Part shown: positions 207-15,286 of the stretch, in pieces | How positions within the stretch are numbered: the first letter of the stretch is position 1 | How the letters are laid out: the number at the start of each line of letters is the position of its first letter | NCBI GenBank assembly: GCA_045863395.1 | Contig: BTVJ01000130.1 | Location: 1-15,336, forward strand | Length of the DNA: 15,336 nucleotides | DNA from: Myxococcales bacterium | GTDB lineage: Bacteria > Myxococcota_A > UBA9042 > JABWCM01 > BTVJ01 | Reading direction: 5' to 3' | Position numbers and translations under genes: made by a program | The notes under the pieces: model-generated | Databases searched by the model: none | Told to the model about the DNA's origin: nothing | The model's input: the letters and a program-made list of their open reading frames with translations, nothing else

Positions 207-959
207 CTACCCCTCGACCCGCCCCAGCAGCCGCAGCAGCGCGTCCAGGATGGTCAGCGGGTGCGGAGGGCATCCAGGGACGTAGAGGTCCACCGGCACC
301 AGGCCATCAACCCCGTCGTTGACCTCCGGGTGGCCGCGGAAGGGGCCGCCCGCGATGGCGCAGGCCCCGACCGCGATCACCAGCTTCGGCGCCGGGATCG
401 CCTCCCACGTCTTGCGCAGCGCCAGCTCCATGTTGGCGCTGACGGGTCCGGTGACCAGGATGCCGTCCGCGTGGCGGGGCGACGCCACGAACTGCACGCC
501 GAAGCGCCCGAGGTCCCAGCCCACCGTGCCGAGGACGTTCGTGTCCGCCTCGCAGGCGTTGCAGCCACCAGCGCTCACCTGGCGCAGCTTGAGGGAGCGG
601 CCGAACAGGCGCAGCAGGCCGCCTTCGAGGGGCTGGAGCGGTGGGGGCGCCCCGCTGGCGAGCCCCTCCCGCGTGCGGGAGCCGAGGCTGAAGGCGCGCC
701 CGTGGGCGATGGCCCCGGTCGGGCAGGCGTCGGTGCAGTCCGTGCAGAAGAGGCAGCGGCCCAGGTCGACGGCGGGAGGGTCGAGCGTGATGCAGTCCGT
801 CGGGCAGGCGGCCACGCAGGCCGCGCAGCCGGGCTCGCAGCGCGCCCTGTCGATGGCCGGAGCGCCGCGAAACCGCTCGGGCAGCGGCGGGGGAGGCCCG
901 TCCGGCCACGCCATGGTGCGGTGCCCCTGCCGCACCCGTTCCAGCAGTAGCTTCCACAT
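207..959 (-). CDS. hyfI: Ehr/hydrogenase-4-type small subunit: 2x[4Fe-4S] ferredoxin (HyfH/NuoI-like) fused to a HyfI/NuoB-like domain, 250 aa
   Basis: Start MWKLLLERVRQG at ATG 959, overlapping the upstream TGA (TGATG). Ferredoxin motifs CEPGCAACVAACP and CLFCTDCTDACP. NuoB/HyfI motifs SAGGCNACE, ASPRHADGILVTGP, GACAIAGG and VPGCPPHP. Confidence 0.93.
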   Translation of the reverse strand: MWKLLLERVRQGHRTMAWPDGPPPPLPERFRGAPAIDRARCEPGCAACVAACPTDCITLDPPAVDLGRCLFCTDCTDACPTGAIAHGRAFSLGSRTREGLASGAPPPLQPLEGGLLRLFGRSLKLRQVSAGGCNACEADTNVLGTVGWDLGRFGVQFVASPRHADGILVTGPVSANMELALRKTWEAIPAPKLVIAVGACAIAGGPFRGHPEVNDGVDGLVPVDLYVPGCPPHPLTILDALLRLLGRVEG

Positions 960-2365
960 CAGAGGTCGTGCCCGCAGTAGGAGAGGTTGAAGCTCTTGTT
1001 GCAGAGCGGGAAGTCCGAGATGGGCTGCCCGCGGAGCGCCAGCGCCAGCCCGGTCCAGTTGTGGAAGGACGGGTCGACCACCTTGACCGCGGAGAGCCCG
1101 TCGGGCCCGGTCAGCGCCACGTGGGCGATCTCGCCGCGCCAGCCCTCCACCAGGGAGACGGCGACGTGCCCCGGCCGCAGGGGTCCCACCGGCGCCCGCA
1201 GCGGCCCCGGCGGAAGGGTCGCGATCAGCTCCCGGATGAGCGCCACGGACCGCTCGTGCTCCGCCCACCGCACCCGCGCCCGCGAGAGCACGTCGCCACC
1301 ACCGACCGGCGGCGCCACGTGCAGGGCCCGCCAGGCCCCGGTGGGGTGGTCGGCGCGCACGTCCCGCCCTACCCCGCTGGCGCGAGCCGCCGGCCCCACG
1401 AGCCCCACGGCGCGGGCCTGCTCCTCGGTCACCGTCCCCGTCCCCTCGAAGCGGCTCATGACCGACGGCTCGTCCCAGAGCAGCGCCACGGCGCCGGCGC
1501 CGTCCCGAGCCGCGGCGTCGATGCGCGGCAGGAGGCCGTCCGGCAGGTCGAAGCGCACGCCGCCGGGCACCAGGAGGCCGCGCCCGAAGCGGTTCCCGCA
1601 CAGGGCGGCGGTCAGGTTCAGCCAGTCTCCGCGGACGCGGCCACAGAAGGACGCCGTCGGCTGGTAGGCGACGTCGTTGGCGAGCGCTCCCAGGTCACCC
1701 ACATGGTTGGCGAGGCGCTCCAGCTCCAGCGCGATGGCGCGCAGCCAACGCCCCAAAGGCGGCACCTCCACCCCGGCGAGCGCCTCCACGGCCTGGCACC
1801 ACGCCGTCGCGTGGCCGATGGTGGTGTCGCCGGCCAGGGTCTCCGCCAAGTGGAGCGCGCGGGGACCGAGGAGGCCCCGCTCCACCCCTCTGTGTTGGTA
1901 CCCGAGCGCGATCTCCAGGTGGAAGACCTCCTCCCCGTGGCACTGGAAGCGGAAGTGGCCGGGCTCGATGATGCCAGCATGGACGGGCCCCACCGCCACC
2001 TCGTGGACGCCCTCGCCCTCCACCCGGTAGAAGTCCTGGGCGCCGGGCACGTCGCCCGGGGCCGTGAAGCGCACGGGGTTGGGCCACGGGTGGCCGATGA
2101 GCTCCACCCCCGCCTGCTCCCGGATCTCCCGCTCGAACAGGTGCACCTCGGGCCGCTCTGCCACCAACGAAGGCAGCCGATCCCCGAGCCGCGCGCGCCC
2201 CACCCGCAGGAGGCCCGCCCCGTCGTCCACCACCGCCACCAGCTCCGGGCCTGCCGCGAAGTACGCCACCACCCGCCCGCTCCGCAGCAGCGCGTGCAGC
2301 TCCTCCAATTCGACTAGAGCCGGCAGCGGGGCCGCCTCCCCGTTCCTCAGCACAGCAACGCTCAT
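959..2365 (-). CDS. hyfG: Ehr large subunit (HyfG/HycE/NuoCD-like) lacking NiFe ligand motifs, 468 aa
   Basis: Start MSVAVLRNG at ATG 2365, with an ATGA overlap on the hyfF stop. NuoC-like LFEREIREQ..GHPWP. NuoD-like GPVHAGIIEPGHFRF, LGYQHRGVE, LELERLANHVGD, VEGWRGE and KVVDPSFHNW. Ends DFPLCNKSFNLSYCGHDL. Confidence 0.93.
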   Translation of the reverse strand: MSVAVLRNGEAAPLPALVELEELHALLRSGRVVAYFAAGPELVAVVDDGAGLLRVGRARLGDRLPSLVAERPEVHLFEREIREQAGVELIGHPWPNPVRFTAPGDVPGAQDFYRVEGEGVHEVAVGPVHAGIIEPGHFRFQCHGEEVFHLEIALGYQHRGVERGLLGPRALHLAETLAGDTTIGHATAWCQAVEALAGVEVPPLGRWLRAIALELERLANHVGDLGALANDVAYQPTASFCGRVRGDWLNLTAALCGNRFGRGLLVPGGVRFDLPDGLLPRIDAAARDGAGAVALLWDEPSVMSRFEGTGTVTEEQARAVGLVGPAARASGVGRDVRADHPTGAWRALHVAPPVGGGDVLSRARVRWAEHERSVALIRELIATLPPGPLRAPVGPLRPGHVAVSLVEGWRGEIAHVALTGPDGLSAVKVVDPSFHNWTGLALALRGQPISDFPLCNKSFNLSYCGHDL

Positions 2366-3774
2366 GGCACCGCCAGCCAGGCCACGGTCGCCTGAATCAG
2401 CGCGTCCACCGGCGCCGGGATCGCCACCCCGAGCCACAGGGACAGGAGCAGGAAGCCCACGATGGGGCTCGACATGAGCGCGGTATCCTTCCACTGCGTC
2501 GGCCCCCCCTCGCCGAAGGAGACCCGCAGGACCGTGCCCGCCATGCCGATGAACACCACCATGATCGCCGCCACGAACAGCGCCGCGATCAGCGCGTGAC
2601 CCGCCGACAGGGCCCCGAGCACGATGGTCAGCTCCGACAGGAAGGGCCCGAAGGGCGGCGCCCCCGTCACGGCGAAGAAGCCCAGCAGGAACAGCCACCC
2701 GGACACGGGCACCCCGCGCAGCGCCCCGGTCACGACGTCCGACGACTTGCTCCCGTAGGCCCGGTGCAGGTTGGCGGCGGACAGGAAGACCACGCCCTTG
2801 GTCACGCCGTTGGTCAGCAGGTGAAGGAGCGCCCCGTAGCGGGCCGCGCCGCCGACCCCCGTGCCGACGGCGAGGATGCCCATGTGCTCGACGCTCGACC
2901 ACGCCAGCATGCGCTTGATGTCCCGCTGCCCGAGCATCATGGCCGCCGCGAGCCCCATGGACAGGAGGCCGAGCACGACCAGCATGTCGCTGGCCACCTC
3001 GCCCTGGCCCGCCAGCGAGACCACCCGAAAGACACGAAGGACGGCGAGGAACGCGGCGCTCGTGACCCCCGCGGCGAAGAGCGCGCCGACCAGCCCCGGG
3101 GCCTCCCCGTAGGCGTCGGGCTTCCAGGCGTGCATGGGGGCGAGGCCCATCTTCGTGCCGTAGCCGACCAACAGGAGCACGAAGGCCGCCTTGACCCACG
3201 GCGCCGAGAGCTGCGGCGCCACGGCGGCGAGGTCGTCGAAGAGCAGAGACGAGTGGACTCCGGCGTGCAGCGCCGCGTAGGCCAGGAAGAACGTGCCGAG
3301 CAGCGCCAGGGCGACGCCCACGGACCCGACGAGCAGGTACTTCCAGGTGGCCTCGATGGAGCGAGGGCTCCGGTTGAAATAGATGAGGGGCGCCGCCGCC
3401 AGCGCCGAGCCCTCGATGGCGACCCACATGATGCCGAGGTGCTGAGCCAGGATGGCGAGGGTCAGGGTGCCGAGCAGCGCCGAGAGGCACGCCACGAAGA
3501 CCCGCGTCGTGCGGGTGCGGAGCCGCAGGTAGCCGACGCCGTAGACGGAGGCGCCGGCGAAGACCACGGACACGAGCGGGAGAACCAGACGGGCCGGCGG
3601 ATCCAGCGCGAGCCACCCGGTCGTGGGCGGCACGTCCAGCGCGAGGAGCGCGCCGCTCAGCCCCAGGTGGCCCAAGGTCGTGGCGACCAGGACGAAGGGG
3701 CGCATCCGGTCCGAGGACACCAGGAGCGCGACCACGGCGCCCACCCAGGGCACGAGCAGGAGCGCGACGTCCAT
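2362..3774 (-). CDS. hyfF: HyfF-like proton-conducting antiporter-type membrane subunit (NuoL/M/N/MrpD family), 470 aa
   Basis: Polytopic membrane protein with MWVAIE, EATWKY, GYGTKMGLAPMHAWKPDAYGEAP, DIKRMLAWSSVEHMG and GAPPFGPFLSE. Confidence 0.92.
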   Translation of the reverse strand: MDVALLLVPWVGAVVALLVSSDRMRPFVLVATTLGHLGLSGALLALDVPPTTGWLALDPPARLVLPLVSVVFAGASVYGVGYLRLRTRTTRVFVACLSALLGTLTLAILAQHLGIMWVAIEGSALAAAPLIYFNRSPRSIEATWKYLLVGSVGVALALLGTFFLAYAALHAGVHSSLLFDDLAAVAPQLSAPWVKAAFVLLLVGYGTKMGLAPMHAWKPDAYGEAPGLVGALFAAGVTSAAFLAVLRVFRVVSLAGQGEVASDMLVVLGLLSMGLAAAMMLGQRDIKRMLAWSSVEHMGILAVGTGVGGAARYGALLHLLTNGVTKGVVFLSAANLHRAYGSKSSDVVTGALRGVPVSGWLFLLGFFAVTGAPPFGPFLSELTIVLGALSAGHALIAALFVAAIMVVFIGMAGTVLRVSFGEGGPTQWKDTALMSSPIVGFLLLSLWLGVAIPAPVDALIQATVAWLAVP

Positions 3775-3775
3775 C

Positions 3776-4420
3776 TCACTCCTTCAGCGAGGACAGCTCG
3801 CGGGTGTCCATGGTGGAGAACTCACGCTGGATGTGATCGATGATGATGCCCATCACGAAGATGCCCACCACCAAATCGAGCAGCGCGCCGACCTCGACGA
3901 GCAGCGGCACCGCCTCCAGCAGCAGCAGACCGAACAGGAAGATCCCGTTCTCAAGGACCAGGTAGCCGAGCACCTGGTTGATGGCCTTCAGGCGCGTCGT
4001 CAGCAGCAGGAAGCCGGTGAAGGAGGTCGTCAGGGCGGCGGGCACCAGCAGGCGCATCTCTTCGCCAGCGATGAGTGGGAGGGTGCGGGTGAAGGCCAGG
4101 GCGAGGCCCGCCCCGACGGCGCCGAGCAGCATGGACGCGCCCAGGCTGATGAAGGGCTCCACGGCCAGCCGGATCTGCGCCTTCTTCATGGCGCGCATCA
4201 ACATGCCGGGGATCACCACCCCCTTGAGGGCCCCGGTCAGCGCCGCCACGGCAAAGGCGCGCACGTCGAGCGTCTCGTGGACCAGCAGCGTGAGCACCCC
4301 GAGCACGAGCCCCTGTGCCCCGACGATGCGGATCACGGCCCGGATGCGGCTGGTGCCCAGCGCGAACACGTTGAGCACGAAGAGGAGCACCAGCAGCGTG
4401 TCGGTCCACCAGGCGGCCAT
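3776..4420 (-). CDS. hyfE: HyfE-like membrane subunit, 214 aa
   Basis: Start MAAWWTDTLL at ATG 4420, overlapping the hyfC TGA by 1 nt. Hydrophobic, with LKGVVIP and QVLGYLVLENGIFLFG. It sits between hyfC and hyfF as in hyf/ehr operons. Confidence 0.9.
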   Translation of the reverse strand: MAAWWTDTLLVLLFVLNVFALGTSRIRAVIRIVGAQGLVLGVLTLLVHETLDVRAFAVAALTGALKGVVIPGMLMRAMKKAQIRLAVEPFISLGASMLLGAVGAGLALAFTRTLPLIAGEEMRLLVPAALTTSFTGFLLLTTRLKAINQVLGYLVLENGIFLFGLLLLEAVPLLVEVGALLDLVVGIFVMGIIIDHIQREFSTMDTRELSSLKE

Positions 4421-5328
4421 CAGCGCACCATCAGCAGGAAGGCGAAGGCGGTGAGCAGAGCGGCCCCGGCGATGAGGTCGGGCGCCTTCTGCAGGCGCAC
4501 CCGGGCCGTGACCGACTCGATCACGCCGATGCCCATGGCGAGCACGACCAGCGCCGCGAGCACCGCTGCGCGTCCGAGCCAGGGCGACTCGACGGCCGGG
4601 AGCACCAGCCTTACGATGACCGCGCCGAGCACCATGAGCTTGAGGGCGGCGCCGTAGAGCACGGCGCCAAAGAGGGGGCCGCTGTGGTCGAGGACCATGA
4701 CCTCGTGGATCATGGTCAGCTCCAGGTGCGTGTTGGGGTCGTCGAAGGGCACGCGGGAGCACTCGACGAGCAGCACCACCACCAGGCCCACCACGCAGAG
4801 CGCGACGGACGCCACCGCGCCCTCCACCGGGGCGGAGAGCATGGGGCCGAGCGAGAGGGCACCCGAGAGGCGCACCAGGCACAGGAGCGCGAAGAACACG
4901 GCGAGCTCGGCCAGGGCGGCCCAGGTGACCTCCCGGGCGGCGCCCATGCCCTCGAACGGGGAGCCGGTGTCGAGGGCCGCCGCCGCGGTGAAGAAGCGCC
5001 CCAAGGCGAGCAGGTAGGCGAAGAGGACCAGGTCCCCATCGAAGCCAAGGACGGACTCACCGGGGCCGAGCGGCACCAGCAGGCCCGCGATGAGGGTAGC
5101 GACCACGCCGACGGCGGGCGCCAGCGGAAACACCCACGTCGTCGTGCGGGAGAGCACGACGCCCTTGCGGGCGAGGCGCAGCAGGTCGCGCCACGGCTGG
5201 AGCAGCGGCGCGCCCGCCCGCCCCGCGAACGCAGCCTTCACCCGGTTGACGACCCCCACGAGCAGCGGCGGGAAGAGCAGCAGCAGCGCAAGGTCCACGA
5301 CCTGCGCAAGCGCGGTCATGGGGGTCAT
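4420..5328 (-). CDS. hyfC: HyfC/HycD (NuoH-like) membrane subunit, about 302 aa
   Basis: ATG 5328 makes an ATGA overlap with the hyfB stop (alternative ATG at 5319). Motifs GRAGAPLLQPWRDLLRL, ALDTGSPFEGMGAARE, ECSRVPFDDPNTHLELTMIHEVMVLDHSG and GVIESVTARVRL. Confidence 0.93.
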   Translation of the reverse strand: MTPMTALAQVVDLALLLLFPPLLVGVVNRVKAAFAGRAGAPLLQPWRDLLRLARKGVVLSRTTTWVFPLAPAVGVVATLIAGLLVPLGPGESVLGFDGDLVLFAYLLALGRFFTAAAALDTGSPFEGMGAAREVTWAALAELAVFFALLCLVRLSGALSLGPMLSAPVEGAVASVALCVVGLVVVLLVECSRVPFDDPNTHLELTMIHEVMVLDHSGPLFGAVLYGAALKLMVLGAVIVRLVLPAVESPWLGRAAVLAALVVLAMGIGVIESVTARVRLQKAPDLIAGAALLTAFAFLLMVR

Positions 5329-7283
5329 CGCGCCCACAGCGTCTCCAGGATGGCGTCGAGCGGCAGCGTGCTCGCCAGGAGCAGGAAGGCCGCGAGGAAG
5401 ATGGTCAGCACGTAGAGCTGCACCCGCCCGCTCTGGAGCGCCCGCAGGCGGCCCAAGGCAGCGCCGGTGCGACGGAAGGCGGGCAGGATGAGCCGCTCCA
5501 GGACCGTGTCGTCCACGTGGGTCTCGAAGCGGGTGGCGGGCGGGTGGAGCCCACTGATCGCAGGGCGGTGGGTCCGCGGGCGAAGCGCCACCGCCAGCAG
5601 GCCCACGAGCCCGTCCGAGAAGGACGAGGCGGTGTACTGCATGCGCGGCGTGGGCACCGCGTAGCCACAATCCCAGGTCCCGGTGCGGGGCGCGGCTCGC
5701 AGGGCGCGGGCCTGACGCCAGGTGAGGAGCGCGACCCCAATGATCAGGACGGCCCCCGCCACGCTCAACGGCCAGAACGGGACCAGGGAGGCAAGCGGGG
5801 GGAGCGCGGGGCCTCCAAGAGTGGCAGCCACCCGGTCGAGGGCGGGCGCCAGCAGGGCGGGGAGCAGACCGATGCCGACACACAGCGCCGCGAGGACCAC
5901 CATGGGGGCGAGCATGGCGGCGGGGGCCTCGTGGGCGGTCTCCGCGTGCTCTGTGCGCGGCTCACCCAGGAACACCGCGCCCGTGACCTTGACGAAGCAG
6001 GCGACCGCGAGCGCCCCCACCAGAGCGAGCAGGGGGGCGGTGATCGCCACGAGCACCACCCCGCCCGGGGCCGCAGTCCGGAACAGCCCAAGGTAGACCA
6101 TGAGCTCGCTGGCGAAGCCGTTGAGCGGCGGCAGGCCGGCGATGGCGACCGCGCCCACCACGAACAGGGCGGCGGTGCGAGGCATTGTTCGCGCGAGCCC
6201 CCCGAGGCGGTCGATGGCGCGCGTGCCCGTGGCGTGGACCACCGCCCCGGCCGCGTAGAAGAGCAAGCTCTTGAAGATCGCGTGGTTCCAGACGTGGAGT
6301 AGCCCGCCTGCGATGCCGAGCACCACCCACTCGGGGCGCCCCAGGGACCGCCCGATGAGGGCGAGCCCGACACCCATGAGGATGATCCCCACGTTCTCGA
6401 TGCTGTGCCAGGCCAAGAGCCGCTTCAGGTCGTGCTGGCCGAGGGCGAAGGCGACCCCGAAGACTGCGCTCGCGACGCCCAGGGCCAGGACCAGCCCGCC
6501 AAACTCGACGGGTGCATCCCCCAGGGTCGCGACCCGCACGATGCCGTAGACCCCCACCTTGAGGAGCACGCCGGAGAGCAGCGCGGACACGTGGGTGGGA
6601 GCGACGGCGTGGGCCCCCGGGAGCCACACGTGCCCGGGCATGACGCCCGCCTTGACCCCGAAGGCTATGAGCCCCAACGCGAGCACGGCGGTGCTCCCCG
6701 ATGGGAGGGGCGCGAACCCGAACGTACCCGTCTCCTGGTAGATGGCGGCAAACAGCAGCCACAAGAGCAGCGTCGAGACGTGGGTGGCGATGAGGTAGAC
6801 GAGGGCTGCCTGCCGAGCCTCCTCCCGGTGGTGGTCGGTCGCCACCAGCGCGAAGGCCGAGAGCGCCATCACCTCCCAGGCAGCGAGGAACGCCACCCCG
6901 CTGCGAGCGAGCACCACGACGGTCATGGCCGCGGCCAGCGCACCGAAGCCGACCCGCACGGCCCGGTGGGAGGTGGGGTGGGAGGCCTCCGACCAGTAGT
7001 GGGTCGCGTAGAGGGCGCCGAGCGCGCTGACGAGCCCGATGGGCACGAGGAACAGCGCGGCGAGAGGATCCAGGGCGAAGGAGAGGGCGCCGCCAGGCAC
7101 GGCCCACGGGACCTCCGCGACGGACCCGGGCGCGCCGAAGAGCACCCCGAGCCCCGCGAGAGCGACAACCGCCCCACCGAGGATGCTGAGGCCAGCGGTG
7201 ACTCGGGTGGGGGCGACCAGGGCGAGCAGCCCCGCGAGCAACAGGAGCCCTGAACCGGCGAGGGCGACTCCGACGGCGCTCAT
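5325..7283 (-). CDS. hyfB: HyfB/HycC-like antiporter-type membrane subunit (NuoL family), 652 aa
   Basis: FLAAWEVMALS, GVKAGVMPGHVWLPGAHAVAP, DLKRLLAWHSIENVG, NHAIFKSLLF, GLPPLNGFASE and the HyfB-type TWDCGY...RMQYTASSF. GGAG lies 5 nt upstream of the ATG. Confidence 0.93.
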   Translation of the reverse strand: MSAVGVALAGSGLLLLAGLLALVAPTRVTAGLSILGGAVVALAGLGVLFGAPGSVAEVPWAVPGGALSFALDPLAALFLVPIGLVSALGALYATHYWSEASHPTSHRAVRVGFGALAAAMTVVVLARSGVAFLAAWEVMALSAFALVATDHHREEARQAALVYLIATHVSTLLLWLLFAAIYQETGTFGFAPLPSGSTAVLALGLIAFGVKAGVMPGHVWLPGAHAVAPTHVSALLSGVLLKVGVYGIVRVATLGDAPVEFGGLVLALGVASAVFGVAFALGQHDLKRLLAWHSIENVGIILMGVGLALIGRSLGRPEWVVLGIAGGLLHVWNHAIFKSLLFYAAGAVVHATGTRAIDRLGGLARTMPRTAALFVVGAVAIAGLPPLNGFASELMVYLGLFRTAAPGGVVLVAITAPLLALVGALAVACFVKVTGAVFLGEPRTEHAETAHEAPAAMLAPMVVLAALCVGIGLLPALLAPALDRVAATLGGPALPPLASLVPFWPLSVAGAVLIIGVALLTWRQARALRAAPRTGTWDCGYAVPTPRMQYTASSFSDGLVGLLAVALRPRTHRPAISGLHPPATRFETHVDDTVLERLILPAFRRTGAALGRLRALQSGRVQLYVLTIFLAAFLLLASTLPLDAILETLWAR

Positions 7284-7476: not shown

Positions 7477-8814
7477 TCACTCCTCCCCGAGCTTCCTGTA
7501 GATGGTGCGGCGGTCGATGCCGAGGATGCGGGCCGCCTCCGCCTTGTTGCCGTCGACCGCGTCGAGCACCGCGCGGATGTAGGCCCGCTCCACCTCCTCC
7601 AGGGGGCGCCCACCGAGGGCGGCCAGCTCCAGCGGGCTCGCGTCGCGAGGTGGTAGATCCAGGTCCCCCAGGGTCACCGTGTCGTGGTCAGACAGGGCGA
7701 CCGCCCGCTCCAGGGTGTTGGACAGCTCCCGGACGTTCCCCGGCCACGGGTGGGAGACGAGGGCGCGCAGGGCCGCGGCGCTCACTCCCGTGATCGCACG
7801 GCCCAGGCGGTCGCCGATGCGGGCCAGCAGCGTATCGACCAGCAGCGGGATGTCCTCGCGCCGCTCGCGCAGGGGGGGGATCTCCACGCGGATGACGTTG
7901 AGGCGATAGTACAGGTCCGGCCGGAAGCGTCGGTCCTTGAGCGCCTCCTCCAGGGGGCGGTTCGTCGCCGCGATGACCCGCACGTCCACCGGCACCTCCC
8001 GGGCGCCCCCCACCGCGCGGACGCGGCCGGTCTCCAGGGCCTGGAGCAGCTTCGCCTGGGCCTCCAGGGGCAGCTCGCCCACCTCGTCGAGGAACAGGGT
8101 CCCACCGTCCGCCTGGAGCATGAGGCCCGGGCGATCCTCGCGGGCGTCGGTGAAGGCGCCCCGCCGCACGCCGAACAGCTCGCTCTCCACCAGAGGTAGG
8201 GGCAGCGCAGCGCAGTTCACCTGGATGAAGGGGCGGCCCGCGCGGGCGCTCCCGTCGTGGATCAGGCGGGCGACGAAGCCCTTGCCGGAGCCGCTCTCAC
8301 CGGTCACGAGCACGGTGGAGTCCGTGCGGCCCGCGCGGACGCTCAGCTCCAGCACCTTGCGCATGGCCGGGCTGGCGGCCGCCGAGGCGTCCGCCGCGCG
8401 GGCCGAGAGGGACTGGCGCAGCCGCACGATCTCGCGACGCATCTGCCGCTCGTGCAGCGCCCGGTCCACGGCGCGCACCAGCACCTCCAGGGGGAACGGC
8501 TTGGTCACGAAGTCGCACGCCCCTTGACGGAGCGCGGTCACCGCCATGTCGATGCTCCCGAAGGCGGTCATGAGCAGCACGAGCTGCCCCGGGCGCCGCG
8601 CGTGGATGGCGCCGACCAGGTCGAGGCCCCGCAGCTCCGGCATCTCCACGTCCGCCACCACAAGGTCGTAGCTCCCCGCATCAGGGCGCTCCAGGGCATC
8701 CCGCGGAGAGGTGGTGCCCACCACGTCGTAGCCGGCCTCCCCGAGCGCGTCCACGAGCAGATCCACCAGGTCCTGGTCGTCGTCCACCACCAGGATGCGC
8801 CCTGCTTCCTTCAT
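7477..8814 (-). CDS. Sigma54-dependent response regulator (REC-AAA+-Fis HTH, NtrC/AtoC family), 445 aa
   Basis: REC motifs ILVVDDD and LVVADVEMP. Walker A GESGSGK, ELFG..RGAFTDA, Walker B LFLDEVGEL, RFRPDLYYRLNV and WPGNVREL. HTH GNKAEAARILGIDRRTIYRKL. ATGA overlap with the kinase. Confidence 0.96.
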   Translation of the reverse strand: MKEAGRILVVDDDQDLVDLLVDALGEAGYDVVGTTSPRDALERPDAGSYDLVVADVEMPELRGLDLVGAIHARRPGQLVLLMTAFGSIDMAVTALRQGACDFVTKPFPLEVLVRAVDRALHERQMRREIVRLRQSLSARAADASAAASPAMRKVLELSVRAGRTDSTVLVTGESGSGKGFVARLIHDGSARAGRPFIQVNCAALPLPLVESELFGVRRGAFTDAREDRPGLMLQADGGTLFLDEVGELPLEAQAKLLQALETGRVRAVGGAREVPVDVRVIAATNRPLEEALKDRRFRPDLYYRLNVIRVEIPPLRERREDIPLLVDTLLARIGDRLGRAITGVSAAALRALVSHPWPGNVRELSNTLERAVALSDHDTVTLGDLDLPPRDASPLELAALGGRPLEEVERAYIRAVLDAVDGNKAEAARILGIDRRTIYRKLGEE

Positions 8815-10268
8815 GTCTCCTCCTGCGCCGGGATGTCCACCTCGAACCGGGCCCCCACGGGCGACGAGCGGAACCGGACCGCGCCCCCGTGCTCCGTCAC
8901 GATGCTCTTGACCACCGAGAGGCCCAACCCCGTGCCCCCCTCTGCGGCGCGGGTCGTGAAGAACGGCTCGAACAGGCGCTCCTGCATGTCGTCGGGGATG
9001 CCCGGACCCGTGTCCTCCACGGCGATGCGGACCGCCCGCCGCGCGCCACCTGGCCCCTCGACCACGGCGCTCTCCAGCGAGACCCCGACCTCTCCGCCCG
9101 ACGGCGTGACCGCCAGCGCGTTGGAGACCAGGTTGAGCACCACCTGCTGGACCTGGTCGGCGTCCGCCTGCGCGACCAGGCCAGGCTCCGCGTCGAGGCG
9201 GACGTAGACACCCCGGCGCCGCGCGTCGTACTGCACCAGGTCCAGGACCTCACGCACGGGCCCCTCCAGCGCCACCGGGCCGATGACCGCGGGCCGCCGC
9301 CTCGCGTAGCTCAGGAGCTGCTGCACGATGCGCCCGATGCGCTCCACCTGCGCCACGAGGATCGCGGAGGTTGCCCTCACGCGCGCCGGGTCCTCGGCGG
9401 CACCATCCAGCATGCGCGCCCGGCCCCCGAGCACCTGGAGTGGCGACCCGATCTCGTGGGCGAGCCCCGCCGAGAGCTGCCCGATGGCGATCAGCTTGTC
9501 CGCCTGCTGGAGGGCCCGATCGAAGCGGAGCCTCGCGTCCGCCGCCTCCGAGAGCTGCAGGCGCGCCGCCACGAGCTCGTCCAGCATCGCGTTGAACTCG
9601 CGGGCCACCTCCCCCACCTCGTCCCGGCGGCGGGCGACCAGCTCGGCGCCCAGGTCTCCCCCCCGCACGCGGCGCATGGCGTGGACGAGGCGCGCTAGCG
9701 GGCGGCCGATGAGGACGGTCCCCACCAGCAGCCCCACCGAGGCGGCCACGACCACGAAGAGCGCCACAGTGGTGGCCACCGCGCGGCGGGTGGAGGCCAC
9801 GTCCGCCTGCAGGGAGGCGAGGGGCGTCGACACCACCAGCGCGCCGAGGGTGCCGCCCCGGTCATCGAGGAGCGGCAGCCCCAGAGCGAGGCGGGGCGGC
9901 TCGGTGTCCAGCTCCCAGGAGTGTGCGCCCCCCCGCTGGACGGCAGCCAGGGCGCGGCCCGACGCGGCCGTGGCCAGCGCGCCCGACGATGCGGCGACCA
10001 GCTCCCCCGCGGGACCGTGCAGGAAGACATCCACCAGAGGATCGACCCGCTCCAGCAGCTCCAGCGTCTCGGTCACATCCTGGAGCTGGCGGTCGCGCAG
10101 CGCGTTCTCGACGGCAACCTGCAGGGTCCGCCCCAGGAGCCCCAGCTCTCGCCGCAGCGCTGCCTCCAGCTCCTGGCGCTCGGACGCGACGAGCCACAGC
10201 CCGTAGCTGCCGAAGAGCACCAGGCCGGCGAGGGCGATGGCGCCGGAGATCTTCAGGGAGATGCGCAC
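8811..10268 (-). CDS. Membrane sensor histidine kinase (2 TM, HAMP, HisKA, HATPase), 485 aa
   Basis: GTG start with GGAG upstream. Two hydrophobic helices flank an extracytoplasmic domain. HAMP RPLARL...DEVGEVAREFNAM, H-box LAHEIGSPL, N-box QVVLNLVSNA, EDTGPG, FEPFFTT and GTGLGL. Confidence 0.95.
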   Translation of the reverse strand: MRISLKISGAIALAGLVLFGSYGLWLVASERQELEAALRRELGLLGRTLQVAVENALRDRQLQDVTETLELLERVDPLVDVFLHGPAGELVAASSGALATAASGRALAAVQRGGAHSWELDTEPPRLALGLPLLDDRGGTLGALVVSTPLASLQADVASTRRAVATTVALFVVVAASVGLLVGTVLIGRPLARLVHAMRRVRGGDLGAELVARRRDEVGEVAREFNAMLDELVAARLQLSEAADARLRFDRALQQADKLIAIGQLSAGLAHEIGSPLQVLGGRARMLDGAAEDPARVRATSAILVAQVERIGRIVQQLLSYARRRPAVIGPVALEGPVREVLDLVQYDARRRGVYVRLDAEPGLVAQADADQVQQVVLNLVSNALAVTPSGGEVGVSLESAVVEGPGGARRAVRIAVEDTGPGIPDDMQERLFEPFFTTRAAEGGTGLGLSVVKSIVTEHGGAVRFRSSPVGARFEVDIPAQEET

Positions 10269-10321: not shown

Positions 10322-10426
10322 GATCCAGTCATGCTGCCCCCTCCCCGGCGCATCGGAATGCTCGTCCTGAGCACAACCATCCAGGATTCCTCGAATTCTG
10401 CGGCGGACGCGCCAAGCCACCGCGCC

Positions 10427-10442
10427 TGGCACGGGGCTTGCG
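10427..10442 (+). promoter_or_regulatory. Sigma54 (-24/-12) promoter
   Basis: TGGCACG-GGGC-TTGCG matches TGGCACG-N4-TTGC(W) with correct GG-N10-GC spacing. Predicted start near 10453. A bEBP is encoded divergently. Confidence 0.88.
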
Positions 10443-10584
10443 AACGGGACCGCCGCCCCGCAGGGCCGGTAGGTGCCCTTGGCTCGTCGCGCGCTCGGTG
10501 GCCGCATTCTCCTTCGTGCGGGGAGCGCGCGGCGTGGGACGTCCGGCGCCGGCGGGGCACCAAGCATGAGCTCGGAGGCGCTCC

Positions 10585-10887
10585 ATGGTGAGGATCCTGC
10601 TCGTCGCCGGCATGGCCGCGACCCTGACGCACCCGGCAACGACCCGGGCAGCCTCTGTCCCGAGCGGCTGGTCCTGCGTGCAATGCACACATACCCTCGC
10701 CTCCGCGGGAGGACTCACGGAGCTCACCGAGACCGCGCCCCTGGACGCAGCATCCGGTGGCCCCACCACCGAGGCGTCCCTCACCACGGGCCGCTCCCCC
10801 CGGTTCTGGCTGGTGCTCGGCGCCGGGGTCCTGGGTCTGCTGCTGGTCGTAGGCCTGACCTGGCTCCGGTGGGAGGACCGCTCGTGA
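10585..10887 (+). CDS. Small hypothetical membrane-anchored protein with a CxxC motif, 100 aa
   Basis: GGAGG 6 nt before the ATG. Signal-like N-terminus, CVQCTH (10675-10692), Thr/Ala/Ser linker and C-terminal TM (FWLVLGAGVLGLLLVVGLTWL). The stop overlaps the next start (GTGA). Confidence 0.7.
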   Translation: MVRILLVAGMAATLTHPATTRAASVPSGWSCVQCTHTLASAGGLTELTETAPLDAASGGPTTEASLTTGRSPRFWLVLGAGVLGLLLVVGLTWLRWEDRS

Positions 10888-11426
10888 CCTTCCCGACAGC
10901 CGGTCACCGAGTTTTGGCCGCCGCGCTGTGGGCCCTGACCCTCTGGGGCGCCGCCGAGGCCCGCGAGCCGGAGATGATCCCCGAGGAGGAGCCGGACCTG
11001 ATCGGCCGCACCGCACCCGAGATCGAGGCGCCGCTGCTGGACGGCGGGCAGTTTCGCCTCAGCGAGCACCGGGGCACCCCGACGGTGATCTCCTTCTTCG
11101 CGAGCTGGTGCACCCCGTGCCGCCACGAGCTGCCGGCACTGGCGGCCATGCTCCGGGCCAGGGGTGACGTGCGCGTGGTCGCGGTCAACGTGGACAAGGA
11201 GCGGGCGGCCGCCGAGCGCTTCCTCCGGTCCCTGAGCGGCAGCGTGGAGGGCCTCCCGGTCGCCCTCGACGCCCACGCGGTCTCCCTGGGAGCCTACCGG
11301 GTCCTGAGCATGCCGACCCTGTTCCTGGTCGACGCACACGGCACCGTCAAGTTCCGCCGGGTGGGCTTCAGCCAGACCAAGGCCCTGAGCGAGCTGGAGG
11401 CTGCCATCGAGGAGCTTGCACGATGA
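10884..11426 (+). CDS. TlpA/ResA/DsbE-family exported thiol-disulfide oxidoreductase, about 180 aa
   Basis: GTG 10884 in a GTGA overlap. Signal-like segment ending AEA. Motifs IGRTAPEIEAPLLDG, LSEHRG, VISFFASWCTPCRHELP, VAVNVD and YRVLSMPTLFLVDAHG. The ORF-track extension back to 10473 looks non-coding. Confidence 0.92.
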   Translation: MTFPTAGHRVLAAALWALTLWGAAEAREPEMIPEEEPDLIGRTAPEIEAPLLDGGQFRLSEHRGTPTVISFFASWCTPCRHELPALAAMLRARGDVRVVAVNVDKERAAAERFLRSLSGSVEGLPVALDAHAVSLGAYRVLSMPTLFLVDAHGTVKFRRVGFSQTKALSELEAAIEELAR

Positions 11427-13291
11427 GCGCACAGACCCGCCGGTGGCCCCTGGCGCTGCTGCTCCCCCTGGTGCTGGCCGGCGCGGGCGTCGGCGGGCTC
11501 CTGACGTGGCACCACGAGCGCGAGCTCTACGGGGGCGCCGAGTCGCAGGACGGGCTCATCGGGTGCGAAGAGTCGGCGACCGTGAGCTGCGACCTCGTCA
11601 ACACCAGCGAGCACTCCGAGATCCTCGGCGTGCCCATCGCGACCCTCGCCATCCCGGTGTATCTGCTGGCGGCGATCCTGTGCCTGGGCGCCCTGCGAGG
11701 GCGCGCGGGGACCCTGCCCCTGCTGGCGGCCATGGGGGCTGGCGCGACCGCATACTCCGCGTTCCTGTTCTATGTCTCCGCCGTGCAGCTCGGCTACGTG
11801 TGCGCCTGGTGCCTGCGCCTGTACGGGGTCAACGCGGCGATGCTCGCCCTGCCGCTGCTCGCCGGGTCCCTGCGGGCGCCGCGCCCGACCCGTCGCACCA
11901 TCGCGCTGACCGCCGTGACCTTCGTGCTGCTCGGCACGGTCGCCGTCGCAGGCCAGCGAACCTACCGCGCGACCCTCTTGGAGCAGCGACCGCCGGAGCT
12001 GACCGCCGTGCGCATCGCCCCCCTCCCGGAGCGGGTGGAGTCGGCTCCGGCACCCGACCCCGCGGGGCCACCGCCGGTGTCCGAGGTAGTCCTGGCCGGC
12101 GACGAGGGAGAGCTGCGACTTCCCATCTCCCCGGACGACCCGTGGCGGGGCAACCGCTCCGCCACCGTGACGGTGGTCGAGTTCGCCGACCTCCAGTGCG
12201 GCTACTGCAAGCGCGCCGCGGCCCAGCTCGACCGCCTGTACGCGGCCTACGCAGACAGGGTCCTCTTCGTGTTCAAGCACTTCCCCATGGACCCGGCGTG
12301 CAACCCGGGCGTCAAGAACCGCCTGCACGGCAAGGCGTGCGTCGCGGCCAAGGCGTCGGTGTGCGCGCAGCAGCAGGGCCGCTTCTGGGACTTCTCCCAC
12401 CTGACGTTCAAGAACCAGCACGCCCTGGACGCGAAGATCCTGCGCACCTACGCGGAGCGCGTCGGCCTCGACGTCACCTCCTTCGACGCCTGCATGGCGT
12501 CGGACGTCCCCACGCAGCAGATCCGGCGCCACGGAGAGGAGGGGGCGGCGGTGGGCGTCAGAGGGACGCCCCGCATCTACATCGGCGGGCAGCTCTATCG
12601 GAGCGGGGCCTCGGCCGAGCAGATGGCCATGGCCATCGAGGTCGCCTTGGGCGCGACGGAGGACCAGGCGAGGGTGCTGACGGCCTCCCTCGCGGAGAGA
12701 GACGAGGCGATGGCGCAGGAGGTCCCCGCCGACACGCCCCCACTCCGCACGGTCGCCATCGGGTCCATGCGGTTCCGCATGTTCACCTTCGAGGGGGCGC
12801 TCTCGGAGGACGGCCGCGCAGAGAGCGGCAAGCGCCGGATACCCGCCACCAACATGAGCTGGTACGCCGCCCGCGACGCGTGCGCGGCGGCTGGGCTCCG
12901 CCTGTGCAGCGAGAAGGAGTGGGTGGCTGCCTGCCAAGGGGAGGAGCCCGTGGACGACAACGGCAACGGCGCGTACGCCGACGACATCGTCGAGGGCACG
13001 AGCTACCCCTACGGCGACTACCACGAGCGAGACCGCTGCTGGGACGGCAAGGAGGGCGAGGGGTCCCGCCCCGTCTACACCGGGGAGCTGCCCGCGTGCG
13101 TCTCCACCACGGGAGTCTACGACCTCACGGGGAACGTGGAGGAGTGGGTCGGGCTCACCGAGGGCGAGGCCGTCCTGCTGGGCGGCGCATTCGACACGGC
13201 GAAGGACCACGCGCGGTGTTACCGCCGCAACGACTCCTTCGGCGCCGGGCTCGCCAACCGCCGGACGGGCTTCCGCTGCTGCGGAGACTGA
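11423..13291 (+). CDS. VKOR - DsbA-like thioredoxin - FGE-sulfatase/SUMF1-like fusion protein, 622 aa
   Basis: VKOR: loop cysteines GCEESATVSCDLVNTSEHSEILGVP and CAWC (11801-11812), 5 TM. DsbA-like: VTVVEFADLQCGYC (Cys motif 12197-12208), FKHFP, QGRFW and GVRGTP. FGE/SUMF1-like: PATNMSWYAARDAC, RLCSEKEW, YPYG, GVYDLTGNVEEW, LLGG and GFRCC. Confidence 0.92.
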   Translation: MSAQTRRWPLALLLPLVLAGAGVGGLLTWHHERELYGGAESQDGLIGCEESATVSCDLVNTSEHSEILGVPIATLAIPVYLLAAILCLGALRGRAGTLPLLAAMGAGATAYSAFLFYVSAVQLGYVCAWCLRLYGVNAAMLALPLLAGSLRAPRPTRRTIALTAVTFVLLGTVAVAGQRTYRATLLEQRPPELTAVRIAPLPERVESAPAPDPAGPPPVSEVVLAGDEGELRLPISPDDPWRGNRSATVTVVEFADLQCGYCKRAAAQLDRLYAAYADRVLFVFKHFPMDPACNPGVKNRLHGKACVAAKASVCAQQQGRFWDFSHLTFKNQHALDAKILRTYAERVGLDVTSFDACMASDVPTQQIRRHGEEGAAVGVRGTPRIYIGGQLYRSGASAEQMAMAIEVALGATEDQARVLTASLAERDEAMAQEVPADTPPLRTVAIGSMRFRMFTFEGALSEDGRAESGKRRIPATNMSWYAARDACAAAGLRLCSEKEWVAACQGEEPVDDNGNGAYADDIVEGTSYPYGDYHERDRCWDGKEGEGSRPVYTGELPACVSTTGVYDLTGNVEEWVGLTEGEAVLLGGAFDTAKDHARCYRRNDSFGAGLANRRTGFRCCGD

Positions 13292-13312
13292 CGGCCCCCG
13301 TAACTGCAAAGT

Positions 13313-13341
13313 TTGCGCGCCTCCCCGGCAGTGGGTACCGT
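13313..13341 (+). promoter_or_regulatory. Putative sigma70-type promoter for the MepA-like gene
   Basis: TTGCGC (13313-13318), a 17-nt spacer, then TACCGT (13336-13341), ending 7 nt before ATG 13349. Confidence 0.45.
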
Positions 13342-13348
13342 GGTCCTC

Positions 13349-14740
13349 ATGCTCGCACACCTCGTCGTCGTGACAGCGTCCTGGCTCCAGATCCTGCAAC
13401 CGCCGGTGGTGACCGGCCCCCGCGCGGCCGAGACGCCCGTCCGCCTGGAGCGCGCCTCGGCGACCGTCCCGGTGGAGGCGAGCGTCCTCGGCGCCCTCCC
13501 CCCCCTGCGCCGCGCCCCCGCCCTCGAGGTGGGGCGAGCCTGGGTCGCCGCAAAGGGAGTGCCGGACACGGCGGAGCAGGCGCGCCACGTCGAGGAGCGC
13601 CGGCTCCTGGCCCTGGTCGCCGACGACCTGCTGCCGATCACCACCCTGGGCGACTCCTTCGGCCGCACGCTGCGGCTCCGTGACCGCTGGCGGAACCGCG
13701 GCTGGGCCTCGCCGGAGATGGTCGCCGTCATCGGGCGGGCCGCGGAGCTGCTCGCCGAGCGCATGCCGGGCGTCGTCGTCACCGTGGGAGACATCTCCCA
13801 GGAGGGGGGCGGCCAGATCCCCTACGGCACGCGCGTGCAGATCCTTCGCGACGGCCCCGTCAGGACGCCGGCCACCGATCTCCTCGCCAGGACCCACGTC
13901 CGGTTCGGGCACGTGGAGCGCGTGGAGACCGTGGACCCCCGTGAGGCGTTCCCCATCGAGGCGTCCCGGTTCGCCAGCTTCGAGGACCCGGTCCTCGTAG
14001 ACACCCGCGTCACTGCGGCGTCCGACTGTGAGGGCTGCCCGCTGGAGGCCCGGGTGGAGACGCGGCGCTTCTGGCTGGCCGACCCCAAGGAGGGTAAGCG
14101 CGTCGGGCGGTGGCTCGTCGAGCTGAATCGACAGCTCCGCGGCGCCACGGTGGTGTCCCGTTCCAAGGAGGGTCAGGGGCCCGAGCGCCTGCACCAGGCC
14201 GTGTTCATCCAGGGCGACCGCCAGGTGGAGATCATCGCCCGCCGCAGACCGGCGCCCGGCCTGCGCCTGGCGGACCTGGTGGAGGTGCGCAGGGCGACCT
14301 TGGACCCGAAGAAGCCCGGCGTCGCCATCTCGGAGTCGCGCTTCCTGCCCGAGCAGACCGCGGACGGCACCCGCGTGGTCGTGTGGCGCTCCCTCTACGA
14401 GGCGACGCACGTCTCGCACCTCGCGGGCCGCGACGCGGACATCAGCTACGTGACGACCTCGATCCCCTACCAGTTCACGAAGGAGATCGGCGAGATCGAC
14501 GTCGAGGGCAGCCGCGCCTGGGTCGAGATCCTCGCCGAGGCGGCCTCCGACGTGGGCGCGACGGTCGACGGCATGCTGATCGACCCCCGGGTGCGGTCCC
14601 GCCTGTCCAACGGAATGTCGAAGACACGCAAGGAGCACCCCGCCTGGGGGATGATCCGCAGCTCCCGCGGCCACGACTCCCACATCCACCTGCGCCTCCG
14701 CCCGGGCTTCGCGGCCGTCGCGCGGGCCGCCCAGGACTGA
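13349..14740 (+). CDS. Penicillin-insensitive murein endopeptidase (MepA/M74-like LAS zinc peptidase) with a large internal insertion, about 463 aa
   Basis: RGWASPEMV...VTVGDISQEGGG, HVSHLAGRDAD (HxxH-x6-D, 14408-14440) and GHDSHIHLR (HxH, 14681-14689) match the MepA zinc-ligand pattern. Start uncertain (ATG 13349 or TTG 13313). Confidence 0.8.
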   Translation: MLAHLVVVTASWLQILQPPVVTGPRAAETPVRLERASATVPVEASVLGALPPLRRAPALEVGRAWVAAKGVPDTAEQARHVEERRLLALVADDLLPITTLGDSFGRTLRLRDRWRNRGWASPEMVAVIGRAAELLAERMPGVVVTVGDISQEGGGQIPYGTRVQILRDGPVRTPATDLLARTHVRFGHVERVETVDPREAFPIEASRFASFEDPVLVDTRVTAASDCEGCPLEARVETRRFWLADPKEGKRVGRWLVELNRQLRGATVVSRSKEGQGPERLHQAVFIQGDRQVEIIARRRPAPGLRLADLVEVRRATLDPKKPGVAISESRFLPEQTADGTRVVVWRSLYEATHVSHLAGRDADISYVTTSIPYQFTKEIGEIDVEGSRAWVEILAEAASDVGATVDGMLIDPRVRSRLSNGMSKTRKEHPAWGMIRSSRGHDSHIHLRLRPGFAAVARAAQD

Positions 14741-14815: not shown

Positions 14816-14827
14816 AGGGAGGTCGTG

Positions 14828-15286
14828 ATGCTCAAGGAATTCAAGGAGTTCGCGGTCAAGGGGAACGTGGTGGACATGGCGGTCGGCATCATCATCGGTG
14901 CCGCCTTCACCACCATCGTGAAGGCACTCGTGGACGGGATCATCATGCCGCCCATCGGCCTGCTCACGGGCGGTGTGGACTTCTCCGAGCACTTCCTCGT
15001 GCTCAAGGAGGGCGCCAAGGTGGCCGGCCCCTACGCGACGGTCGCCGCAGCCCAGGAGGGCGGGGCCGTGGTCGTGAGCTGGGGCGTGTTCGTCAACGCG
15101 CTGGTGAACTTCACGCTGGTCGCCTTCGCCCTGTTCCTGGTGGTCAAGCAGATCAACCGCCTCCGGCCCGCACCGGCGCCTGCGCCGGCCCCCGTCACCC
15201 GCGAGTGCCCGCACTGCCTGTCTGCCATCTCCAAGAAGGCAACCCGCTGCCCCCACTGCACGTCCGAGGTCGCTCCCGTTGCCTAG
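14828..15286 (+). CDS. mscL: Large-conductance mechanosensitive channel MscL with a C-terminal Cys4 zinc-ribbon-like tail
   Basis: [44 protein letters not shown] and [16 protein letters not shown] 5 nt before ATG 14828. Tail [19 protein letters not shown]. Confidence 0.97.

Follow-up and report, generated by a model that had tools for sequence, protein, structure and literature searches.

In bacteria, disulfide formation (DsbA/DsbB or VKOR) and disulfide reduction or isomerization (DsbC/DsbD, TlpA) are normally kept separate. Earlier reports describe bacterial VKOR as keeping DsbA oxidized via menaquinone (PMC13486548), a Clostridium VKOR-DsbA fusion as complementing E. coli dsbA dsbB (PMC12453122), and MauE as a recently proposed third oxidant (bioRxiv 10.64898/2026.03.05.709764). 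The VKOR-DsbA protein of Clostridium sp. (PMC12453122), VKOR-Trx of Synechococcus sp. (PDB 4nv2/4nv6), and plant LTO1 have in common a VKOR loop cysteine pair, a serine, a CXXC motif, a fifth helix, and a tethered thioredoxin-fold oxidant. We find the same features in a gene located on a 15,336-nucleotide stretch of DNA (hereafter, the window) that represents contig BTVJ01000130.1 of a Myxococcales bacterium (assembly GCA_045863395.1). Unlike the proteins just named, the family of this gene adds a conserved domain with the fold of formylglycine-generating enzyme (FGE) and a TlpA-like partner. We propose, with what we regard as an even chance of being right, that the fusion and its upstream neighbor constitute a general periplasmic oxidative-folding machine in which the FGE-fold domain binds and the TlpA-like protein proof-reads. 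VKOR-DsbA fusions were already known; the three- or four-part family is real, conserved, and uncharacterized. What is new here is the almost perfect coupling seen for the split form, the control with fusions that have no FGE domain, and the comparison of genomes in which the family supplies the sole oxidant.

The fusion gene (positions 11423..13291, plus strand) is a single unbroken open reading frame (ORF) of 622 amino acids with three Pfam domains, each above its cut-off: VKOR (PF07884; amino acids 13-143, positions 11459..11851; E = 1.4e-17, 64.5 bits versus a cut-off of 27.5), Thioredoxin_4/DSBA (PF13462/PF01323; amino acids 237-406, positions 12131..12640; E = 2e-19), and FGE-sulfatase (PF03781; amino acids 466-619; E = 2.1e-13), the last lying within a C-type-lectin-fold domain of FGE type that spans amino acids 437-622 (positions 12731..13288). 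These matches establish the three-domain architecture that had been put forward in a preliminary description of this DNA, and the motifs listed there are all present. The VKOR domain contains loop cysteines C48 and C56, S62, and the CAWC motif (C127/C130), with C87 as one non-conserved cysteine; the DsbA/ScsC-fold domain has CGYC (C259/C262), a GTP cis-Pro loop (381-383), and four extra conserved cysteines (C293, C306, C314, and C357); and the C-terminal domain has eight cysteines (487, 495, 504, 539, 559, 599, 619, and 620) along with an acidic DDNxNG loop. The identity and cysteine content of this last domain were correctly described, but its size is about 186 residues rather than 170. The possibility of an assembly chimera at 12640-12780 was ruled out by independent contigs and homologs: a 7,266-base contig from a separate study covers 10400-13800 unbroken with 12 substitutions and zero gaps, a contig from a third study covers 11129-13225 across the domain junction, and, among the matches listed besides the query, 119 of 119 were full length with 51-73% identity and the same three Pfam domains. 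The underlying protein search gave 358 matches among 8,000 scored candidates. RNA libraries held just scattered short contigs matching the locus, which are possibly DNA and do not demonstrate transcription, and a search for promoter-like sites found none.

An AlphaFold2 (AF2) model of the fusion, derived from a 120-sequence alignment, exhibited a mean predicted local distance difference test score (pLDDT) of 89.5 and a predicted template modeling score (pTM) of 0.81. The model has five membrane-region helices, including helix 157-187, and a pLDDT of <50 at residues 189-202, as for a disordered Pro-rich linker; hydropathy, AF2, and charge bias together assign a fifth transmembrane helix (amino acids ∼157-180) and a flexible Pro-rich linker (amino acids ∼188-220) to positions 11891..12082. 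Hydropathy analysis gave three clear peaks and two weak ones, and the charge bias over 120 homologs, with an acidic loop 1 and with Lys/Arg enriched in loops 2 and 4 and at the N-terminus, is consistent with a protein whose N-terminus lies in the cytoplasm and whose Cys loop, like all residues beyond helix 5, lies outside. The VKOR cysteines and the fused partner are thus predicted to be periplasmic, in agreement with the earlier assignment of a fifth transmembrane helix that places the remainder of the protein outside. Structural alignment superimposed residues 6-153 on the VKOR-like structure 6wv8 (Z 15.5, root-mean-square deviation (rmsd) 2.2, 140 aligned), residues 225-412 on DsbA/ScsC-type folds (Z 19-21), and residues 437-622 on the FGE-fold protein CalU17 (6vqp; Z 15.1, rmsd 2.9, 161 aligned); the best folds for the DsbA domain were 3gyk, alpha-DsbA2, ScsC, and BdbD (Z 19.8-21). 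By Pfam match, fold, loop cysteine pair, serine, and active-site CXXC the first domain is a bacterial VKOR, and the second has the thioredoxin fold with helical insertion, CXXC, and cis-Pro loop of DsbA-like proteins. CGYC together with Thr-cis-Pro is found in isomerases as well.

The active-site residues are strongly conserved across two forms of the family. Type A proteins, to which the window's gene belongs, are ∼600-670 amino acids in length and end after the FGE domain, while type B proteins (∼800-890 amino acids) add a C-terminal Redoxin/AhpC-TSA domain that is TlpA/ResA-like. C48, C56, S62, C127, and C130 are invariant in 120 of 120 type A sequences, for which the DsbA domain has CGYC in 111 of 120 cases and GTPR in all; in type B (39 sequences) the catalytic residues are invariant except C48 (36/39). 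The type B model (pLDDT 88.3, pTM 0.54) has domains with no fixed predicted mutual arrangement. Among other described proteins, the ScsC/ScsB/TlpA systems of Caulobacter and Proteus are related in two respects (PMC3322552, PMC11634996): the ScsC catalytic domain folds like the DsbA domain of this family (Z ∼20), and a TlpA-type thioredoxin occurs in both. In contrast to that system, where ScsB feeds ScsC, the ScsC-like domain of this family is attached to an oxidizing VKOR, and at the place of the oligomerizing N-terminal helix of ScsC the monomer model has the low-confidence Pro-rich linker.

The FGE-fold domain is probably not an enzyme. It shares with SUMF1, SUMF2, CalU17, TvpA, and the C-terminal domain of EgtB the fold and the RL..EW, G.YD..GN..EW, GG, and GFRC motifs, and its profile searched against the PDB gave as best match the inactive paralog pFGE/SUMF2 (E = 2.5e-11), along with CalU17 and human FGE. 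In contrast to those FGE proteins, the loop is shorter and free of cysteine (after GG it reads GGAFDTAKDHARC), the domain belongs to a disulfide-rich RLC/RCC subgroup, and there is no DinB domain. The Cys-bearing segment of human FGE, whose loop cysteines we take to be the catalytic, copper-binding pair, is an insertion in the alignment and is absent from this family; the catalytic-loop cysteines are missing in 82 of 82 domains, which upholds the preliminary view that FGE catalysis is unlikely, and the domain thus has the FGE-sulfatase match and fold of SUMF1 but not its catalytic cysteine pair. Exactly eight cysteines occur in all 82 sequences of both types. Four of these align with cysteines of human FGE that presumably form structural disulfides. 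Of 29 related RLC domains whose C-terminus was parsed, 28 have both the RLC and the RCC cysteines, and two other domains lack both; this co-occurrence suggests a third disulfide bond. The eight invariant cysteines are probably structural. FGE catalysis and sulfatase maturation were rejected, since there is no catalytic cysteine pair and since sulfatases, present in each of the 107 class genomes with or without the family, do not track it. The domain also differs from the EgtB/OvoA/SenA sulfoxide synthases, as Pfam shows no N-terminal DinB-like iron-binding domain joined to it and the SenA score is 16.6 versus a cut-off of 420.

The same domain is the best conserved one in both subfamilies, with 67% in type A (versus 65% and 55% for the other domains) and 51% in type B (versus 46%, 35%, and 41%). 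Most residues that the two types share belong to fold motifs, and the face presumed to bind is not the same in both; there is no free Cys, His, or Met conserved in type A and type B alike, and H534 is invariant in type A only. The FGE-type C-type-lectin fold is described as a general ligand-binding motif (PMC5006420). From its sequence features, the FGE-fold domain is likely to be a non-catalytic binding or docking domain. The window's genome holds a pool of 39 Pfam matches to this fold, and 32 short, close stand-alone matches to the domain lie mostly on contigs of ∼1 kb and were read as fragments. As another pairing of thioredoxin fold and FGE fold, the Atlas contains a SCO1/SenC-FGE fusion in a 71-member, mostly Verrucomicrobiota cluster (score of 0.77, a lead only).

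A fourth part, which the preliminary description overlooked, is encoded directly upstream of the fusion by a TlpA/ResA-like thioredoxin gene of ∼180 amino acids (∼10884..11426, plus strand), the stop codon of which overlaps the fusion start (ATGA). The product combines a Redoxin fold, WCxxC (WCTPC at 11106-11120), an SMP cis-Pro motif, and a signal-peptide-like N-terminus; its start is a probable GTG at 10884 chosen by inspection, and the signal peptide was read by eye. It matches Pfam AhpC-TSA/Redoxin, its best NCBIfam model is ResA with neither the ResA nor the TlpA cut-off reached, and the structures closest to its profile are DsbE/ResA/TlpA. After removal of near duplicates, TlpA was found to adjoin 31 of 31 three-domain loci with context (directly upstream in 30 and directly downstream in one), and it is fused C-terminally in 49 distinct paralogous loci. 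For three of the 31 loci, which are 3'-truncated, assignment to type A was by identity; five three-domain loci without 5' context and four unassigned 3'-truncated loci were dropped before counting. In the tree, the 31st locus clusters with type B; a separate lipoprotein-type TlpA overlaps its stop. Among the 30 upstream genes, the RTGA overlap pattern occurs at 22 stops and the CGPC motif in 23. These results identify TlpA as a fourth, apparently obligate part of the unit.

Two controls show that the TlpA link is specific to FGE-bearing fusions. None of the 18 VKOR-DsbA loci that have context but no FGE domain had a TlpA beside it; the presence of VKOR is therefore not enough to account for the association. 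These controls were drawn from a metagenome scan of 80 loci, which included at least six family loci, and comprised 28 loci from which 10 were dropped for having <800 bases on either side. Of 44 FGE-like matches, just three had a TlpA within 3.5 kb, namely the two family members and a weak case of 32 bits. Reciprocal profiles, built without the window genome's own copies, identified the upstream and fused TlpA of that genome as mutually nearest paralogs (128-129 bits versus ≤108 for others); these were relied on because a quick TlpA tree gave long-branch warnings and did not resolve monophyly. In the tree of the core, type A is a clade (31 rows, support of 97), and this unrooted tree leaves fusion versus fission undecided. 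Complex prediction for the fusion with TlpA yielded weak support, with a score of 0.59 compared to 0.00 for the best control, at least 96% agreement of contacts between runs, and a partner pLDDT of 86; 18 of 157 solved pairs, and both of the mismatches that passed, did so with values of ≤0.60.

Several loci show variant arrangements of these parts. L219 (3922-9254, plus strand) has in tandem a TlpA gene, a type A fusion, a type-B-like three-domain fusion, and a separate lipoprotein TlpA, and L237 (692-3685, plus strand) encodes a five-domain VKOR-DsbA-DsbA-FGE-TlpA protein with every CXXC intact. L246 (487-3792, plus strand) is a degenerate four-domain member that has lost the CXXC of VKOR and DsbA and has retained the structural cysteines of the DsbA and FGE domains and the CXXC of the TlpA part; judged from these residues, it resembles a pseudo-enzyme or a scaffold. 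In several loci the fusion is followed by an additional, more distant thioredoxin-like gene or by a double-DsbA gene (L011, L017, L044, L050, L052, L094, L217, and L218, in each directly 3' of the fusion; also L022 and L024). A VKOR-DsbA-rhodanese fusion was seen on metagenome contigs in four of four long ORFs examined (L102:3884-5479, L112:2464-4302, L117:2902-4518, and L120:3884-5506). No family fusion larger than 1,089 amino acids was found, which is weak evidence.

We surveyed disulfide oxidants in the 107 genomes of the window's class, of which none has DsbB and 104 have VKOR. The single VKOR match sits inside the family ORF in 17 carrier genomes; 10 of these are at least 90% complete, all with the fused TlpA, one with a second DsbA domain, and just two with MauE. 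The four-domain form is therefore the sole oxidant of DsbB, VKOR, or MauE type found in eight near-complete genomes of one family (f7), which favors a general role over a client-specific one. DsbD/CcdA (DsbD_TM) was present in 13 of 13 carriers tested, a result that shows merely that a donor exists. By a heuristic count with no control, 835 of the 3,858 coding-like ORFs of the window's genome have at least 10 cysteines, which hints at a proteome very rich in cysteine. The same genome has 338 coding-like ORFs with at least 20 cysteines, and giant Cys-rich ORFs are found on contigs C70, C31, C88, C11, and others (up to 502 cysteines in 6,762 codons).

The DsbA plus FGE core was detected in 63 of the 107 genomes of the class and in 77 of 401 sampled from the phylum, with a patchy distribution by family. 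The architecture is accordingly common, one half of what the preliminary description said would refute its observation; as to the other half, neither a characterized three-domain protein nor any description of a three- or four-part form was found in open-licence PMC and bioRxiv literature. Named records with full-length matches are all uncultured genomes, many labeled Myxococcota, Myxococcales, or Deltaproteobacteria; other records carry proteobacterial or other labels that are unconfirmed, and Myxococcota is the most frequent phylum in both of the Atlas clusters that match (174 and 70 members). The window's genome also has a type B copy on contig C63 and a plain VKOR-DsbA on C25. Its type A copy shares 54-63% identity with copies from other classes of the phylum but no more than 45% with any in the remaining 106 genomes of the class, whose copies, as far as examined, belong to type B; the 4-mer make-up of the contig is ordinary for the genome (72nd percentile). 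This identity pattern suggests an old transfer or repeated loss. No recurring client gene was found beside the family with a crude gene caller that missed five upstream TlpA genes, the biggest neighbor cluster after the family and thioredoxins comprises eight unannotated loci, and the recurring neighbors that were annotated include no gene for copper or cytochrome c maturation.

In the machine that we propose, electrons would flow from VKOR to quinone, VKOR would maintain the tethered DsbA-like domain in its oxidized state, and the CGYC domain would oxidize clients. The lectin-fold FGE domain may hold unfolded clients, dock the TlpA part, or do both, and the CGPC-type TlpA could reduce or reshuffle wrong disulfides as a proof-reader, itself being kept reduced by DsbD/CcdA. 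For comparison, ScsB feeds TlpA in Caulobacter (PMC3322552). The observations beneath this scheme are the four parts, their intact CXXC and cis-Pro motifs, their constant co-occurrence, the lack of FGE catalytic cysteines, and the lack of DsbB in the class. Several points weigh against it. Tethering a reduced TlpA next to VKOR would invite futile cycling. The eight sole-oxidant genomes are of one family, are not independent, and carry type B, and the window's genome has two further VKORs and MauE; type A, which coexists there with type B and these other oxidants, may be more specialized. In addition, 44 of the 107 class genomes are without the family and nearly all of these still have VKOR, so the family is dispensable for disulfide formation. 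The FGE-less controls derive mostly from other taxa, the weak complex pass may merely reflect likeness to the solved VKOR-thioredoxin complex and would fit an oxidized TlpA, the type A pocket residues D591, D595, A597, R598, Y600, and N603 are not conserved in type B, and domain packing is uncertain (pTM of 0.81 for type A, 0.49 for the Atlas model, and 0.54 for type B).

The alternative that deserves the most attention is one in which TlpA is a second carrier, oxidized by VKOR or the DsbA domain, that relays disulfides to clients or to free or tandem DsbA proteins while the FGE domain positions it. TlpA is tied to VKOR in every case, the weak pass (0.59 versus 0.00) could represent TlpA docking on VKOR, and the window's genome has many DsbA-like domains in need of an oxidant. 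Moreover, two reports indicate that monomeric ScsC turns into a DsbB partner once steric shielding is removed, so that shielding and not motif can set direction (PMC11634996), and that MauD-type thioredoxins are oxidative with MauE (bioRxiv 10.64898/2026.03.05.709764). The CGPC and xMP motifs and the nearest structures, however, are those of ResA/TlpA reductases, DsbD/CcdA is universal among the carriers tested, and the FGE-less VKOR-DsbA fusions had no TlpA in any of 18 cases; we consider an oxidized TlpA unlikely, if well worth keeping in mind. We give a lower rating, that of a distinctly improbable explanation, to a client-specific machine in which the FGE fold recognizes one protein class, such as the expanded disulfide-rich FGE-fold or Cys-repeat surface proteins, with types A and B serving different clients. 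Such specialization agrees with the patchy distribution, with conserved pocket residues that differ by type, with the coexistence of type A, type B, and plain VKOR-DsbA in the window's genome, and with its 39 FGE-fold matches, but it accords poorly with the sole detectable oxidant of eight near-complete genomes, with the lack of a recurring client gene nearby (subject to the crude gene caller), and with sulfatases that are present regardless of carriage. The preliminary description had inferred a substrate-recruiting module of just this kind; a binding role for the domain is likely, whereas its client specificity is weakened by those genomes and the missing client gene.

TlpA reduces Sco/CoxB, and FGE uses copper. 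The module could accordingly be imagined to handle copper or haem-attachment cysteines in the manner of ScsC or TlpA, with the FGE fold serving as a site for a metal or a cofactor protein, and both the structural proximity of the DsbA domain to ScsC-type proteins and the Atlas SCO1/SenC-FGE cluster (score of 0.77, as a lead) point in that direction. Little credence can be given to a role in metal-center maturation, since no free Cys, His, or Met is shared by the FGE domains of the two types, annotated recurring neighbors include no copper or cytochrome c maturation gene, and an oxidizing VKOR poorly suits a reductive role. It is also very hard to see in the FGE-fold domain a passenger, or a client built into the chain, that was acquired from a plentiful domain pool and has no catalytic role. 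Domains of this family are indeed numerous and promiscuous in these genomes, but this one is the most conserved in both subfamilies, it was retained in L246 despite loss of the VKOR and DsbA CXXC motifs, and its presence predicts the TlpA partner; on these grounds the built-in client offered as a second option in the preliminary description is unlikely.

Elsewhere in the window, an operon on the minus strand (207-7283) encodes complex-I-like membrane subunits and 49 kDa/20 kDa subunits as judged by Pfam, and presumably resembles a hydrogenase-4/Ehr-type energy-converting complex; it is preceded by a sigma-54 two-component pair (7477-10268). Downstream of the fusion are genes for a MepA-like protein (13313-14740, plus strand; partial match to Peptidase_M74) with a long insertion and for MscL with a C-terminal CxxC...CxxC extension (14825-15286, plus strand), neither of which is recurrent beside the family elsewhere.

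Eukaryotic PDI has non-catalytic b/b' thioredoxin-fold domains between its active domains, and a separate oxidase supplies the disulfides. By analogy, type B proteins have two CXXC thioredoxin-fold domains that flank a non-catalytic domain, and an oxidase would supply the disulfides; unlike in PDI, the middle domain has a lectin fold, the active domains are of different classes, and the oxidase is a fused membrane VKOR. The layout of the family is analogous, not homologous, to that of PDI with its oxidase. We tentatively extend our proposal of a general oxidative-folding machine, though with more doubt than confidence, to a one-piece bacterial counterpart of PDI plus oxidase that would combine disulfide generation, transfer, client binding, and proof-reading in one chain or two-gene unit, whose lectin-fold domain would hold the client and shield the reduced thioredoxin from VKOR, and which would be an evolutionary adaptation to the extremely Cys-rich proteins that Myxococcota secrete. 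If efficient on Cys-rich proteins, the system might provide a single-gene tool for expression of disulfide-rich proteins in E. coli. The analysis also points to a possible function for an FGE-fold domain that is not catalytic, although databases wrongly label it a formylglycine-generating enzyme. Across dozens of genomes, an oxidase and a reductase-type thioredoxin are tied together by fusion and by at least two split arrangements, always with the lectin-fold domain, and the family thus offers a testable case of how oxidizing and reducing pathways coexist without a futile cycle. If our interpretation is true, shielding by the lectin fold would be a new way to separate these pathways.

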